A stretch of 64,000 nucleotides of DNA from Heterostelium pallidum (taxonomy: Eukaryota): positions 965,410 to 1,029,409 of the forward strand of contig NW_008805086.1 of NCBI RefSeq assembly GCF_000004825.1. Direction: 5' to 3'. Each line of letters begins with the position of its first letter. Position 1 is the first letter of the stretch. Below, piece by piece: positions 54,501 through 58,655 of this stretch. Both the position numbers and the translations under genes were made by a program. The notes beneath the pieces were generated by a model. It was not told where the DNA came from, ran no database searches, and saw only the letters and a list, made by a program, of their open reading frames with translations.

Positions 54501-57500
54501 GCATCAATGCATGGTGATCCCTTTGAGGACATGATGAGAGCGGTGCGTTTAACTATCACCAATCTCCGTGGAATGAATATTAAATTCAACATTGTCCAAT
54601 TCGGTGATATTTTCGATTGGTTATTCATTGAACATGTTCCACCAACTGAAGCCAATCTTCAATTGGCATGGAGTCATATCAACTCGCTCCGTCCATCCTA
54701 TGGTGGTACCGCACTTCACCTGCCATTGCAATCGTTGATTCTCATGTCTGACCAAACTCCATCAAATCGTCCACACAATATAGTGTTGTTCACAGATGGA
54801 CAGATTGCCAATCCACCACTTGTTCAAGCACTTATTCGTAGATCTTCATCGAAATGTCGTCTCTTCTGTTTCGGTGTTGGACCGGATGTATCACGTCACC
54901 TAATCAAGTCACTCACTCGTTTGGGCGCAGGTTTCGCAGAGTTTATCACACCCAACAAACGTCCATCGACCAAGAAAATCATTGCTCAACTTCAACGTAC
55001 AGTAGCTCCAGCGATGTCCAATGTTCGCGTTGTCTTTGACTCGAGCGACAAGATCACTCAGACACCTGCCACCATCACCTCTATCTTTAGAAGTGAACGT
55101 CAGGTTGTCTATGCTTTCAGTGGTATCTGTACACGTGCAACACTCACTGCTCAGGCGCCAGGAGGTGGACTCATAAGCAATGCCGTTCACACACCAGAGA
55201 TTGGATTCCTTCGTGGCAATCTGATCCATCGTCTGGCAGCAAGATCCATGATTCGTGAGTACAACGATGGTAGCTATTCAGATTCAAAGCTACAACACGA
55301 CTTGATCAAGATGAACAAGAAGCAAGACATCATCGACCTCTCAATCAAATATTCCATTGTCACAGAGTTTACCTCGTTCGTGGCCATCGAGAAGCGTGAG
55401 AAAGGTGAAGTCGCCAAACCTCAACCAAATATGATGGAAATCGTTGAACAAACAGTAGTCGACACACTCCCTTATATTTCTTTTGAAAAGGAGGGAGAGT
55501 CTGATGATTCCGGTGACTCTACAATGAAGACAAAGAGAAGACAGCTGGTTGATTTGATCAAGGAAAATCAGGAGCAATCTACCATTGAAAGAAAGTCAGA
55601 ATCACTTCGTGTATTCCATCAAATTATTGATACCTATGGTGAATACGACTTTGAGGAGCTCAGGCTATTCGGTCAAACCATCGATACCATCGTAGATGAA
55701 TTAGTTACCAAGTCGATTGAATCGGACACCACCACCGACAGCCAAGCAAAGATGACACCATTGGCGTTGAGTCGTGCCAAGCGTAACAAGCAAAAGGCAT
55801 TGGATGAATTGAAGTATCAATCACATGGTTTGTTGAGATTGGTTGAAGCATCACTATCCACATGTGTCCGTGAGGAATCAAAGATTGTAGTACTCGAGAG
55901 ACAATGTGTTATCAACGGTATCTTGGCTGGCATAGAAACAAATGAGATAGCCAAGAAAGCCATGATGGATAAAACCAAGCAGTTGTTTGAATCTACCTTG
56001 AAGAGATCCGAGAAACTCCCACCAACCAACGCAATCAGATTGCATCTCGCTTACTCGGCATCACTATTTTACAAGCGTATTGGAATGTTGGACCAAGCTT
56101 GTTCAATCTCCAAAACTTCTTTTGACGATGCCATCAGTGAATTGGATTGTCTAAGTGAAGATTCCTACCAGGAAGGAACTCTCATTATGCAGTTGATTCG
56201 TGACAACCTCACAGAGATGACAGAGGAAATGGAAATCGATATGGAACCAAGTTTAATGAAGACACCAACCAAAGGAAAGTTAGAGCAGGTTACAAACGAG
56301 CAACCTCTTGAAGACAAACCAAGCTCAAATATTTGGTCACAGGTTGTAAAGAATCTTGTTGGTGATAAGCCAACGCTAAAAAATAAACCTGTTCTCGATT
56401 GGGCTATGATCACTGAGGAGGATGAAGAACTTAGGTCAATTAATCGTGCCGATGAAAAAGAAAAACGTGGAGATAAAGATAGAGATAGAAGAGATGAAAT
56501 AGAAGATAGAGAAAGACAAAGAGAAAGAGGAGGTGAAAGAGAAAAAGCAAAAGAAAGAGATGTTAGAGATAGAAAAGGGAAAGGAGATGTAAAGAAAGAG
56601 GCTTTTGAACTATCAGTAAGAAGAAGCAGAAGTAGAAGTCCAAGTCCACCACGATTACAAGCACAAAAAAATAGAGTTAGTTTTGGTGGTAAAGCAGGCA
56701 GGGGTGGTAGAGGAGGATTTTCTGGAGGAGAATTATCAAGCGGAACAGAAGAGCGTAGATCAAGACACGTGAGTTTATTTGATTCCATGGATGGTGTACA
56801 AGAGTTACCACCACCTCCTCCAACCACAACCCCAATAGTTACTCCTACAACACCAGCTCCCAGACCAACAAGTGGATCGAAAGCACCTCAAAAAACATTT
56901 TCATTTGGTGGCGGTGGCAATGTCGGCAATGGCGCACCTGTTGGAGGTCTGATTGGCAGTCCATCTAACTTTAACAATAACAACAATAATAGGGATGGTA
57001 GCTTCCAACATATAGGAATGGCATTCGGATCTGCTCAACCCACCCCATCTGGATCACCATTCTTGTCAACATTTGGCGCAGCGACAACAACTTCGCTCTT
57101 TGGTACTTCATCAACTTCATCCTCCTCATCGTTTGGTGCTTCACCAACCTCATCTTCCTCACCTTTTGGTCAAAGTTCAACACCATCAACAACATATGGA
57201 TTGAGAAGTTCGACAGTCTCAACAGGAAAGGCTGCACCTGTAGAGAATAAACCTACCTTTGCTTCTTCTTTGTTTGGAGCACCCTCCCAACCTGCTGCAC
57301 CACCAGCACCTGCGCCAAAGGCACCTGTGACTTCGTGGAGAGCACCTTCATCATCTCCTGCACCACCACCTCCACCACCAGCAGCGTCAGGACCACCTCC
57401 ACCACCAGGCGCACCATCTCCATTAAAACCGACCGTTCCAATTAGTGGTATGCTTAGAAGATTATCATCGAGCTCTCTTTCACAAAGCATTTCACAAGAA

Positions 57501-58655
57501 AAATCGGCACAAGCTCCTCCACAACAACAACAACAACAAAAATTAGTTGCTGATCAATCTTCCTTACTTAATTCAATTAAAGAAGGAGCCAAATTAAAAA
57601 AGAAATCAGTGTCACATTCTTATTCCCCAACTGCACCATCTTACTCACCAACCTCACCATCTTACTCACCAACCTCACCATCTTACTCACCAACCTCACC
57701 ATCTTACTCACCAACCTCACCATCTTACTCACCAACCTCACCATCTTACTCACCAACCTCACCATCAATTAATCCGTCAGATTATGTCAAAAGTGGAGCA
57801 GCAGCAAGTGCAGGAAATATGAGACTGATGGACACTCTATCCTCTGCATTGTTTTCAAGACGTTCAACAGTTAAGTTCGACAGTTATTCTGAAGATGAGC
57901 CGAGCGATGACGATTGGGACGATGATTCACCAATGGAACAATTGAGTATCGATCCTGCTCCCAAGATGAAATATGAACAAAAGAAGGAGGAATGCTTGTC
58001 AGAAGAGGAAGGAGAAGATTTCAGAATGTCCTTGTTTGATGATGGTTATAGTGTACCTCTTACAGAACCAAAATATAACAAAGATATTGGTGCTCCACTT
58101 GCAAAATCGCAGCCAGAGAGAATCTATGAAGAATCAGAAGAGGATTGCGGTCTATTTGATGGAGATTTTGAACTTGAATTACTCGCAAAACCAGCTCCTA
58201 AGCCAATTTCTACTTCATCATTATCATCTTCATCAAGTGCCAAGAGATGCACTGTCATTGCAAACGATGACTCTGATGAGGACATGGGATTCGATTTGTT
58301 TGGCGACTACAGTCAGGAAGAAAAGAAAGCTTCACCACAAAAAGAAACGGAATCGATTGTTTGGAAACTCAATTCAGCAATCAACGGCAGAATTATGGAG
58401 GTTTTGGAGATTCTTGGTATCCCATTGAATGATCCGTTCATCCAAAAGGTTAATAAGAAAGAATACACCAGAGTGATAAACGAGTTGGTATTTGTTTTCC
58501 TCAAGCTACTCATCCATGATACAGAGGCTGCTCAAACCATGTTGAACAAGCTCAATAGATTGGCCCAAATCAAAACTGTACAAATCGATAGATATAGTCC
58601 AGCCTACTATTGCCTCAAGAGAACAAGATATGCACATCTCATTAAATCATTGTAA
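51509..58655 (+). CDS. PARP4 (vault PARP)-like protein, 2,327 codons: BRCT, PARP regulatory+catalytic, VIT and vWA domains, plus a long chimeric C-terminal extension
   Basis: Three exons (51509-51634, 51720-53230, 53309-58655) with phases 0 and 2. BRCT-like motifs are [19 protein letters not shown]. The PARP H-Y-E residues lie in LYHGS, GIYFG and [11 protein letters not shown] is [43 protein letters not shown]. vWA is [22 protein letters not shown]. The C-terminal modules are described in the findings. Confidence 0.85.
57621..57767 (+). repeat. Seven tandem 21-bp coding repeats giving 1x YSPTAPS plus 6x YSPTSPS
   Basis: The unit tacTCACCAACCTCACCATCT is repeated with perfect nucleotide identity in six units, in frame with the PARP4-like ORF. 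Confidence 0.95.

Follow-up and report, generated by a model that had tools for sequence, protein, structure and literature searches.

A genuine VCA module of the WASP-family type (WH2 motif, V; connector, C; acidic tail, A) is encoded at positions 57555-57929 of the window (the whole 64,000-nucleotide stretch of DNA that was analyzed), as shown by sequence analysis. Its host is a PARP4-like protein of Heterostelium album PN500, an orthologue of the vault poly(ADP-ribose) polymerase (PARP4), in which the module is located in a long disordered linker among other hub-motif copies. Because of these motifs in the same linker, the VCA is read as one displayed ligand rather than as a sign that PARP4 is dedicated to nucleation. 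We take it to be one genuine ligand, probably for actin and Arp2/3, within a collage of displayed hub motifs; we see about an even chance that it acts mainly as a tethering ligand among them. Vaults and their PARP have gone for decades without a defined function. A conserved, sequence-validated VCA predicts a concrete interaction of the PARP4 linker with actin and Arp2/3, and it offers a clue to the binding partners of PARP4 and vaults.

The gene was mapped in the window using tblastn (Table 1), and its product was 100% identical to P0001. The VCA shares one unbroken 1769-codon ORF with VIT, VWA, and 14-3-3. The poly-Pro, WH2, and C+A peptides from which a preliminary description had proposed the module were all found in this continuous plus-strand ORF; the coordinates given there were correct, with the reading frame starting at 57291. 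A Pfam search of the ORF returned the tail of the PARP domain, VIT (E 5.6e-36) and VWA_3 (E 3.4e-16) downstream of the catalytic domain, 14-3-3, Rpb1_R, and nothing else. PF00644 (PARP) is annotated for P0001. The H-Y-E triad was read by eye (TLYHGS, GSGIYFG, NDDEIVVF), and catalysis is putative. No BRCT domain is listed for the protein. The closest database matches, which spanned Amoebozoa and Metazoa, were PARP4 or PARP4-like; the earlier assignment of the host was correct. The C-terminal part of the 14-3-3 domain (query translated from 56001) matched solved 14-3-3 chains with an E-value of about 1e-19; Perina et al. 2014 (PMC4245714) had already described a 14-3-3 domain in this protein family. 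Minus-strand coding over the VCA region was considered and rejected, the ORFs there being by-products of repetitive composition. A gene-fusion artefact was likewise rejected, because a single ORF is present and the same architecture occurs in independent genomes.

Table 1. Features of the PARP4-like gene, given as positions in the window.
Feature	Position	Strand	Remarks
Whole PARP4-like gene	51509..58655	+	tblastn mapping; protein of 2327 aa
Exon 1	51509-51637	+	tblastn mapping
Remainder of gene after exon 1	51702-58652	+	tblastn mapping; stop at 58655
Last uninterrupted ORF (last exon)	53346..58655	+	1769 aa/codons
14-3-3-like domain	55581..56213	+	ORF residues 746-956; Pfam E 1.3e-22
RD/RE/K-rich stretch	56454-56588	+	read from translation
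RS stretch	56619-56654	+	12 residues; read from translation
RGG stretch	56685-56729	+	read from translation
FG-repeat region	56898..57284	+	7 FG by regex [SGATLMPN]FG
Proline-rich stretch	57342-57422	+	27 residues
V (WH2 motif)	57555..57608	+	18 residues; protein residues 1962-1979
Pol II CTD-type heptads	57621-57767	+	seven (YSPTAPS + 6 x YSPTSPS); inserted in V-C linker
C (connector amphipathic helix)	57813..57878	+	22 residues; protein residues 2048-2069
A (acidic tail with Trp)	57879..57929	+	17 residues; protein residues 2070-2086
P1/P2 stalk-tail-like motif 1	57999-58049	+	14 residues; acidic/aromatic
P1/P2 stalk-tail-like motif 2	58128-58184	+	16 residues; acidic/aromatic
P1/P2 stalk-tail-like motif 3	58263-58310	+	14 residues; acidic/aromatic
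C-terminal helical domain	58350..58652	+	occupies position of PARP4 MVP-interaction (MINT/MVPID) domain

All three hallmarks of a WASP-family-type module were present, as had been claimed, and they were found in the V-C-A order: a WH2 core matching LLxxIxxGxxLKK (15 residues, 57564-57608), an amphipathic connector that terminates in RR, and the invariant Trp within an acidic run. The 38-residue C+A peptide spans 57813-57926 on the plus strand. Helices in an AF2 model of residues 1940-2327 coincided with V (1952-1975, pLDDT about 71) and with C (2036-2064, pLDDT about 63), the surrounding sequence being otherwise disordered; the mean pLDDT of this model was low (48.8), and it was used for helix positions only. 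The proposed WASP-style reading was supported in part: by sequence, the module is of the WASP-family type. The module is internal, being followed by about 240 residues that include the helical domain, and no regulatory or targeting domain of a WASP-family class (WH1/GBD, SCAR homology, WAHD1, or similar) accompanies it. The V-C gap is 91 residues, compared to 28-37 in ten orthologues, because the heptads were inserted (ca. 60 extra residues); such a gap is atypical and might impair actin delivery. That a heptad array splits V from C had been described correctly. The array matched Pfam RNA_pol_Rpb1_R above the cut-off (27.6 vs 20.3 bits) and RPB1 chains with an E-value of 1e-68. In DNA, it is a 21-bp tandem repeat of 7.1 copies with 96% matches, and this near-perfect repetition means that it is recent. 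Among the orthologues compared, heptads lie between V and C only in H. album, and elsewhere outside the VCA. By sequence analysis, the array is a recently expanded one that was inserted into the flexible V-C linker of H. album.

The sequence around the H. album VCA is strongly biased (Pro-rich, Ser-rich, acidic), and a chance resemblance arising from low complexity, or an artefact of annotation or assembly, had to be weighed. Two results lend themselves to that explanation. Pfam WH2 scored 13-14 bits (14.1) on the H. album sequence alone, below the 23.1 cut-off, and a BLASTP comparison between human WAVE1 and the heptad-spliced VCA of H. album gave no alignment. Profiles and orthologues were needed because the Pfam WH2 result alone would not support the claim. 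A WASP/WAVE profile composed only of VCAs from WASP/WAVE, and thus free of any PARP4 sequence, scored 26.5 bits against the native H. album C-terminal region. The maxima for shuffled sequences were 7.1 bits (2000 full shuffles) and 7.6 bits (2000 shuffles of 30-residue blocks), and none of the 4000 reached the native score. When H. album was left out and a profile was made from the nine remaining PARP4 VCAs, that profile scored 30.6 bits against H. album (V 19.3, CA 25.2); here, the shuffle maximum was 18.9, and 0 of 2000 reached the native value. The WASP profile, the source of which was 24 short metagenomic WASP last-exon fragments (the sole yield of a word-indexed homologue search with the VCA profile, and uninformative on distribution), found two separate domains, V at residues 1946-1987 (13.2 bits) and C+A at 2044-2084 (11.6 bits). 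Given that even composition-preserving block shuffles never came near the native score, that ten further orthologues, drawn from independent genomes, show V-C-A with the same invariant hallmark residues, and that the module shares its uninterrupted ORF with VIT, VWA, and 14-3-3, this explanation is extremely improbable; the shuffle controls, together with the conservation in orthologues, refute a chance or low-complexity origin of the VCA.

Similarity was also established in the opposite direction. An alignment of ten PARP4 VCAs (A1) was used as a profile against the PDB, and it matched the N-WASP and WAVE1 VCAs with E-values from 4.5e-16 to 8e-9; the alignment to WAVE1 extends from WH2 through the terminal Trp. 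By profile, the C region of H. album aligns to those of WAVE1 and N-WASP, and the Trp of its acidic tail aligns with the terminal Trp of WAVE1. The Cavenderia PARP4 VCA matched WAVE1 directly in BLASTP (E 7e-7). An exhaustive search of 1.84 billion proteins with the A1 profile yielded 949 matches, the best 150 of which were nearly all at the extreme C-termini of proteins of 300-600 aa; the proteins sampled among the matches were bona fide WH1+PBD+WH2 WASPs.

Orthologues were surveyed among the best 120 of 969 PARP4-like matches. In this set, V-C-A was found in at least five other Amoebozoa and at least five sponges, which settles in favor of the module the question, raised by the preliminary description, of whether orthologues keep its motifs. 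The WASP/WAVE profile matched V and CA in H. album and ten other PARP4-likes, and WASP-profile scores were 36.8 bits for P0062, 35.7 for P0021, 28.7 for P0002, 28.4 for P0004, and 22.8 for P0001. The WH2 search that had been suggested gave a divided result: Pfam WH2 was found in eight of the ten orthologue VCAs (best E 4.9e-7), and H. album by itself was sub-threshold as described above. In A1, residues L10, I13, L51, L55, R58, and W77 are invariant and G16 nearly so. Poly-Pro is located upstream of V in most orthologues, and FG/poly-Pro regions precede the VCA in orthologues too. Module order and copy number in the linker differ between species; V-C-A stays together. The constraint is not universal, because the dictyostelid orthologue P0005 has lost V. 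Using the WASP profile on the best 120 of 969 matches, no VCA was detected in most animal PARP4-likes, vertebrate PARP4 included. The position of the VCA in the linker is common to H. album and to the amoebozoan and sponge orthologues, which is consistent with descent of the module from an ancestor common to Amorphea; two independent acquisitions may alternatively have taken place. VCAs close to the PARP4 type were also carried by P0201, a 1608-aa protein of no assigned identity, and by the metagenomic P0149 and P0150, which match the PARP4 VCA profile and feature a signal peptide and several WH2 motifs followed by C and A. A literature search found no earlier account of PARP4 carrying a VCA or a motif collage.

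The preliminary description had viewed the VCA in isolation; the linker is full of other conserved hub-motif copies. In H. album, the CTD heptads, P-stalk tails, FG, RGG, and RS motifs all come after the 14-3-3 domain. Pfam Ribosomal_60s matched the stalk-tail-like motifs weakly (E 0.59-1.8), and it is annotated for orthologues P0002, P0004, P0006, and P0007; MGFGLF occurs in one to four copies per orthologue. Animal PARP4-like linkers hold near-exact copies of pieces of actin (4-74 of 410), Hsp70 (380-526 of 599), and synaptobrevin (17-62 of 89), which are fragments rather than domains, and of ubiquitin, which is whole. The actin segment (Pfam Actin positions 4-74) presumably includes the D-loop. 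With these other hub motifs in the linker, "nucleation-promoting factor" is a less likely purpose of the module than "displayed binding ligand".

The linker ends at the C-terminal domain, which AF2 models as a helical bundle (pLDDT 66-79). The family profile A2 matched human PARP4 1573-1704 (E 3e-17). The C-terminal domains of Discosea and sponges are homologous to human MINT/MVPID, a Discosea-only profile matched goat PARP4, and this MINT homologue follows the VCA in both groups. A dictyostelid-only HMM of the domain had no matches outside dictyostelids, hhalign of the dictyostelid domain against the MINT alignment returned a probability of 0.1, and a Foldseek search of the PDB with the AF2 C-terminal model returned nothing. 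The H. album domain agrees with MINT in position and helical character only. Because the HMM, hhalign, and Foldseek results were all negative, no claim of vault anchoring is made for H. album; with no detectable MINT similarity in its C-terminal domain, that step is unsupported there. Vault proximity labelling in D. discoideum picked up a PARP4-type protein (PMC13100048). Human MINT docks PARP4 inside the vault, with the remaining protein in the lumen (PMC12280208).

From the known behavior of VCA modules, the WH2 motif would bind one actin monomer, and C and A together would attach to the Arp2/3 complex; from the same behavior, we infer that the poly-Pro upstream is a possible binding site for profilin-actin. 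Many copies of highly conserved hub motifs occupy the linker that connects the enzymatic half to the C-terminal anchoring domain; as one of them, the VCA would bring those that recognize it, actin and Arp2/3 foremost, beside the ADP-ribosyltransferase. In orthologues with a recognizable MINT, these partners would be brought into the vault lumen. Some nucleation would be expected in vitro, although it is probably not what the module is for.

PARP4 could instead be a true nucleation-promoting factor, its PRD-V-C-A activating Arp2/3 and thereby forming branched actin at vaults or other PARP4 sites. Clustering of VCAs makes WASP-family proteins potent, and several PARP4 copies per vault could supply it. 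The complete V, C, and A with their hallmark residues are kept in Amoebozoa and sponges, poly-Pro usually lies upstream, and the V-C spacing is WASP-like in all orthologues but H. album; a nucleation factor would equally predict a complete PRD-V-C-A that is so deeply conserved, and so this conservation does not separate the explanation from tethering. In human cells, moreover, plasma-membrane and migration proteins are over-represented among PARP4-dependent vault interactors (PMC12280208). Nevertheless, the module is internal rather than C-terminal, PARP4 has no regulatory domain of the WASP type, and the flanking unrelated hub motifs would be useless to a nucleation factor. The insertion separating V from CA in H. 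album, the loss of V in P0005, and the lack of the module in most animal PARP4-likes (best 120 of 969) also argue against it. Where MINT is present, the linker would lie inside the vault lumen (PMC12280208), a poor site for branched networks. A true nucleation-promoting factor is accordingly considered rather unlikely.

The VCA might also be an integrated decoy or tripwire, one among many baits modeled on conserved host targets, so that pathogen effectors which bind, modify, or cleave those targets would be captured, ADP-ribosylated, or sequestered in the vault; in a variant, cleavage of the linker would release PARP4. Such a role would account for a linker that is a collage of near-exact hub copies (actin, ubiquitin, SNARE motif, Hsp70 substrate-binding domain, P-stalk, CTD, 14-3-3, VCA), several of which are well-known targets or cofactors of toxins or effectors. 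It would also suit the fluid order and copy number of the modules and the recent heptad repeat. The VCAs of P0149, P0150, and P0201 suggest that non-host organisms may use VCAs as well. The disordered linker of mammalian PARP4 has undergone recurrent positive selection; it has been proposed as a binding interface (PMC4038475) and to bind pathogen proteins or be cleaved (PMC4038475, PMC10450202). Set against this, the reading is entirely inferential, the VCA is anciently conserved rather than fast-evolving, and a literature search found no paper proposing a decoy role. We know of no effector that targets host VCAs as such. A decoy role is therefore judged unlikely.

A broader idea, advanced tentatively and with more doubt than conviction, is that the PARP4 linker is an ancient display array of the most conserved hubs, which would serve as baits for effectors and toxins or for endogenous machines, to be captured beside the ADP-ribosyltransferase. 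In amoebae, the array would comprise the WASP/WAVE VCA, the Pol II CTD, the ribosomal P-stalk tail, FG repeats, and 14-3-3; in animals, the N-terminal actin segment, ubiquitin, the synaptobrevin SNARE motif, and the Hsp70 substrate-binding domain would be added. Captured partners would be held inside the vault where MINT is present. The collage would thus predict a whole list of partners. If the idea were true, vaults and PARP4 would gain a definite, testable role that has been conserved between amoebae and animals, and the positive selection on the mammalian linker would be explained; were the motifs baits, ADP-ribosylation, vaults, and innate defence would be linked across Amorphea.

Compared to vertebrate PARP4, the H. 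album protein likewise has a PARP domain (H-Y-E), VIT-VWA, a long disordered linker, and a C-terminal helical domain, and its linker corresponds in position to the fast-evolving exon-30 region in mammalian PARP4 (PMC4038475). Vertebrate PARP4 lacks the VCA; H. album has the VCA and 14-3-3 with no BRCT listed, and the dictyostelid C-terminal domain, unlike that of vertebrates, is not detectably MINT-like. Plant NLR integrated decoys (PMC4759884) are copies or fragments of host proteins embedded beside a separate enzymatic or signalling part. The analogy to them is conceptual only, as PARP4 is without NLR architecture. With the VCAs of WASP/N-WASP and SCAR/WAVE, the module shares the order of elements, the hallmark residues, and the upstream poly-Pro, and profile similarity is reciprocal with N-WASP, WAVE1, and WH1-PBD WASPs; ten residues of the H. 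album C region resemble the WAVE type ILSRRIAVEY. The modules of the WASP family are terminal, whereas that of H. album is internal with the long V-C linker, and its host has PARP, VIT, VWA, and 14-3-3 but neither WH1/GBD nor a SCAR-homology domain by Pfam. Judged by these domains, the H. album PARP4-like protein stands outside the WASP family even though it bears a VCA. The pathogen mimics Listeria ActA, Rickettsia RickA, and baculovirus p78/83 are other proteins with no relation to that family onto which a VCA-like module has been grafted. The PARP4 carrier differs from these in being a conserved host enzyme whose module appears to have been vertically conserved across eukaryotic supergroup-level distances; for the actin field, the new VCA carrier outside the WASP family is thus a host enzyme and not a pathogen mimic.

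The window comes from Heterostelium album PN500 (Polysphondylium pallidum). The region lies within a single unbroken ORF of 1769 codons (53346..58655, + strand), which constitutes the last exon of a PARP4-like gene; the encoded protein of 2327 aa is 100% identical to P0001, the H. album PARP4-like protein. The domains found in this ORF using Pfam were the end of the PARP catalytic domain, VIT, VWA, and 14-3-3, and the H-Y-E residues of the PARP domain were seen by reading the translation directly. The 14-3-3 part matched real 14-3-3 proteins with E of about 1e-19; this PARP4-like type with an added 14-3-3 domain has already been noted in P. 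pallidum and its relatives (Perina et al. 2014, PMC4245714). In a database search, other amoebozoan PARP4-like proteins came out as the closest relatives, ahead of many animal PARP4 and PARP4-like proteins. A convergent ORF downstream of the gene (58712-59497, - strand; 261 aa) has a long tail rich in N, Q, K, and D.

In the preliminary description, a WASP-style VCA module (WH2, connector, and acidic-Trp tail, or V, C, and A) split by heptad repeats was proposed for this protein. All of the peptides quoted there were found in frame (see the table). The Pfam WH2 model, which had been suggested as a check, scored H. album alone at only 13-14 bits (cut-off 23.1), but a WASP/WAVE profile matched both V and C+A. 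The heptad-spliced H. album VCA gave no match to human WAVE1 in BLASTP, and the H. album sequence taken alone makes a weak case for a VCA. AF2 modelling of residues 1940-2327 placed one predicted helix precisely on the WH2 (pLDDT about 71) and another on the connector (about 63); disorder was predicted for the heptads, acidic tail, and subsequent motifs, and a helical bundle for the C-terminus. A 12-residue peptide at 57441-57476, downstream of the poly-Pro stretch and upstream of the WH2, has counterparts in Synstelium (LSGMFRRVSQSS) and Cavenderia (PSGMMRMIP); its RRxS pattern resembles a basophilic kinase or 14-3-3-type site, and the same protein has its own 14-3-3 domain.

Features of the PARP4-like gene and of PARP4-like linkers (nucleotide positions in the window; residue numbers for animal PARP4-like proteins)
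Feature	Position	Strand	Basis
PARP4-like gene start	51509	+	mapping of protein onto window
Poly-Pro stretch	57342-57422	+	read in frame
WH2-like 15-residue peptide	57564-57608	+	read in frame
Seven heptads, YSPTAPS + 6 x YSPTSPS	57621-57767	+	read in frame
38-residue C+A peptide	57813-57926	+	read in frame
Three acidic/aromatic motifs after VCA	57999-58049, 58128-58184, 58263-58310	+	read from translation
Actin/ubiquitin/Hsp70/synaptobrevin-type pieces	P0022 1422-1497; P0017 1321-1392, 1417-1469, 2177-2323		sequence
Actin/ubiquitin/Hsp70/synaptobrevin-type pieces	P0034 1327-1381, 1435-1480, 2130-2264; P0021 1356-1427, 1449-1513, 1653-1708		sequence

To construct the WASP/WAVE profile, WAVE1 and N-WASP strings were combined with 22 VVCA fragments encoded by metagenomic WASP last exons; it contained zero PARP4 sequences. 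Against H. album PARP4, it yielded two domains (V, residues 1946-1987; C+A, residues 2044-2084) and 22.8 bits overall. The native C-terminal region scored 26.5 bits, compared to maxima of 7.1 bits in 2000 full shuffles and 7.6 bits in 2000 shuffles of 30-residue blocks, which preserve local composition. A leave-one-out profile made from the other PARP4 VCAs gave 30.6 bits on H. album (shuffle maximum 18.9). Chance resemblance and artefact were both excluded as the source of the VCA.

Loss of the motifs in orthologues was the point on which the proposal had been staked; contiguous V-C-A was found in ten other PARP4 orthologues, five from Amoebozoa (Cavenderia fasciculata, Synstelium polycarpum, Dictyostelium purpureum, Balamuthia mandrillaris, and Acanthamoeba castellanii) and five from sponges (Dysidea, Oscarella, Halichondria, Amphimedon, and Ephydatia). 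In the ten-sequence alignment of PARP4 VCAs (A1; Ephydatia left out), the invariant positions were Leu and Ile in the WH2, the Arg and two Leu in the connector, and the acidic-tail Trp. The dictyostelid orthologue P0005 has lost V and retained C and A. Automated Pfam annotation already marks a WH2 in the Oscarella PARP4-like protein. Among the best 120 of 969 PARP4-like matches, the WASP/WAVE profile found no VCA in roughly 100 other animal PARP4-likes.

When the A1 profile was compared to all PDB sequences, the top eight matches were the VCAs of N-WASP and WAVE1 (E 4.5e-16 to 1e-5), with the WAVE1 alignment spanning WH2 through the terminal Trp; the Cavenderia VCA alone matched WAVE1 in BLASTP (E 7e-7). 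An exhaustive A1 search of 1.84 billion representative proteins returned 949 matches. Nearly all of the best 150 were located at the extreme C-terminus of 300-600-residue proteins, and 7 of 10 sampled matches had the WH1 + PBD + WH2 architecture of true WASPs. Given the profile matches, the orthologues, and the reciprocal similarity to N-WASP and WAVE1, the H. album module is, as judged by sequence, a WASP-family-type VCA, as had been proposed. The H. album PARP4-like protein itself was rejected as a WASP-family protein because it has neither WH1/GBD nor a SCAR-homology domain in Pfam.

Other carriers were also observed. P0201, an unannotated metagenomic protein of 1608 aa, has an internal PRD-V-C-A (PRD, proline-rich stretch) at residues 1088-1153, and its motif NDLLASIKAGTKLKKV ... 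NLLSNAFTSRRAAL ... DDDDDWGDDD closely resembles the amoebozoan PARP4 VCA. P0277 (865 aa) is a RhoGEF-PH-C2-WW protein with a VCA at its end, another non-WASP carrier. P0149 and P0150 each combine an N-terminus resembling a signal peptide with several WH2 motifs and, at the C-terminus, a CA, an architecture that suggests VCA mimics of a pathogen or symbiont.

The heptads do sit between the WH2 and C in H. album, as first described. They matched the Pfam Rpb1 repeat above threshold (27.6 bits) and RPB1 with E of 1e-68. Because the array occupies the V-C linker, the V-to-C distance is 91 residues, compared to 28-37 in all other species. In those species, heptads are placed elsewhere in the protein, at varying linker positions, and the V/C split is therefore lineage-specific. 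At the DNA level the array is a 21-bp tandem repeat (7.1 copies, 96% matches); such near-perfect repetition suggests that the split is recent and implies recent expansion or concerted evolution of the array.

The VCA is one of many motifs in the long disordered linker that runs from the 14-3-3 domain to the C-terminal helical domain. In H. album, the order is RD/RE-rich, RS, RGG, poly-Pro, FG repeats, a second poly-Pro, WH2, CTD heptads, C and A, and three acidic/aromatic motifs. The RD/RE-rich, RS, RGG, and FG-repeat stretches upstream of the VCA (56454-57284) are reminiscent of low-complexity motifs of the splicing-factor, GAR, and nucleoporin types. The last acidic/aromatic motif closely reproduces the conserved tail at the C-terminus of ribosomal P1/P2 stalk proteins, and orthologues carry 1-4 copies of MGFGLF. 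Amoebozoan orthologues have the same kinds of module in differing order and copy number, with an extra ubiquitin domain in that of Acanthamoeba.

In animal PARP4-likes (sponges, bivalves, and others), the same position, after VWA/14-3-3, holds fragments rather than domains: actin (Pfam positions 4-74 of 410), Hsp70 (380-526 of 599, the substrate-binding domain), and synaptobrevin (17-62 of 89, the SNARE motif), along with a whole ubiquitin ending in LRLRGG. These pieces are near-identical in sequence to genuine proteins. Among the best 120 of 969 PARP4-like matches, Pfam Actin and ubiquitin were each counted by eye in about thirty. A literature search found no description of these animal pieces, nor any mention of WH2/VCA or of a motif collage in PARP4.

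The post-linker domain of Discosea and sponges is homologous to the MVP-interaction domain (MINT/MVPID) of human PARP4, which docks the protein inside the vault, with its other parts in the lumen (PMC12280208). The dictyostelid C-terminal helical domain (58350-58652 in H. album) is conserved within dictyostelids (E 1e-37 to 1e-48), and no sequence or fold similarity to the Discosea/animal MINT/MVPID was detectable; judging from these comparisons, it would be either an extremely diverged MINT/MVPID or a replacement. Enclosure of 80S ribosomes in D. discoideum vaults was recently reported (PMC13100048), and a link between these ribosomes and the P-stalk-tail motifs is speculative.

The PARP4 linker has thus been shown to contain a conserved, sequence-validated VCA. 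By analogy to established VCA biochemistry, its WH2 would bind an actin monomer, and C and A would bind Arp2/3. PARP4 may possibly be a straightforward nucleation-promoting factor. We prefer the view that the VCA serves mainly as a tethering ligand among the many hub motifs on show in the linker, because CTD heptads, P-stalk tails, and FG repeats are displayed beside it, because animals also display actin, ubiquitin, and SNARE fragments, and because the module is internal and, in H. album, split. As a tether, the VCA would draw the proteins that bind it towards the ADP-ribosyltransferase and, in orthologues that have a MINT domain, into the vault. It is also possible that the motif array serves as bait, capturing pathogen effectors aimed at these hubs. 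The mammalian counterpart of the linker is disordered, longer than 300 residues, and under recurrent positive selection; binding to pathogen proteins, or cleavage by them, has been proposed for it (PMC4038475; PMC10450202). Conservation of the hallmark residues fits the tether, nucleation-promoting, and bait readings alike, since all three predict it.

The module type itself is well known, and what is new is its carrier, internal position, and context: the VCA is terminal in WASP-family proteins, whereas that of PARP4 is internal.
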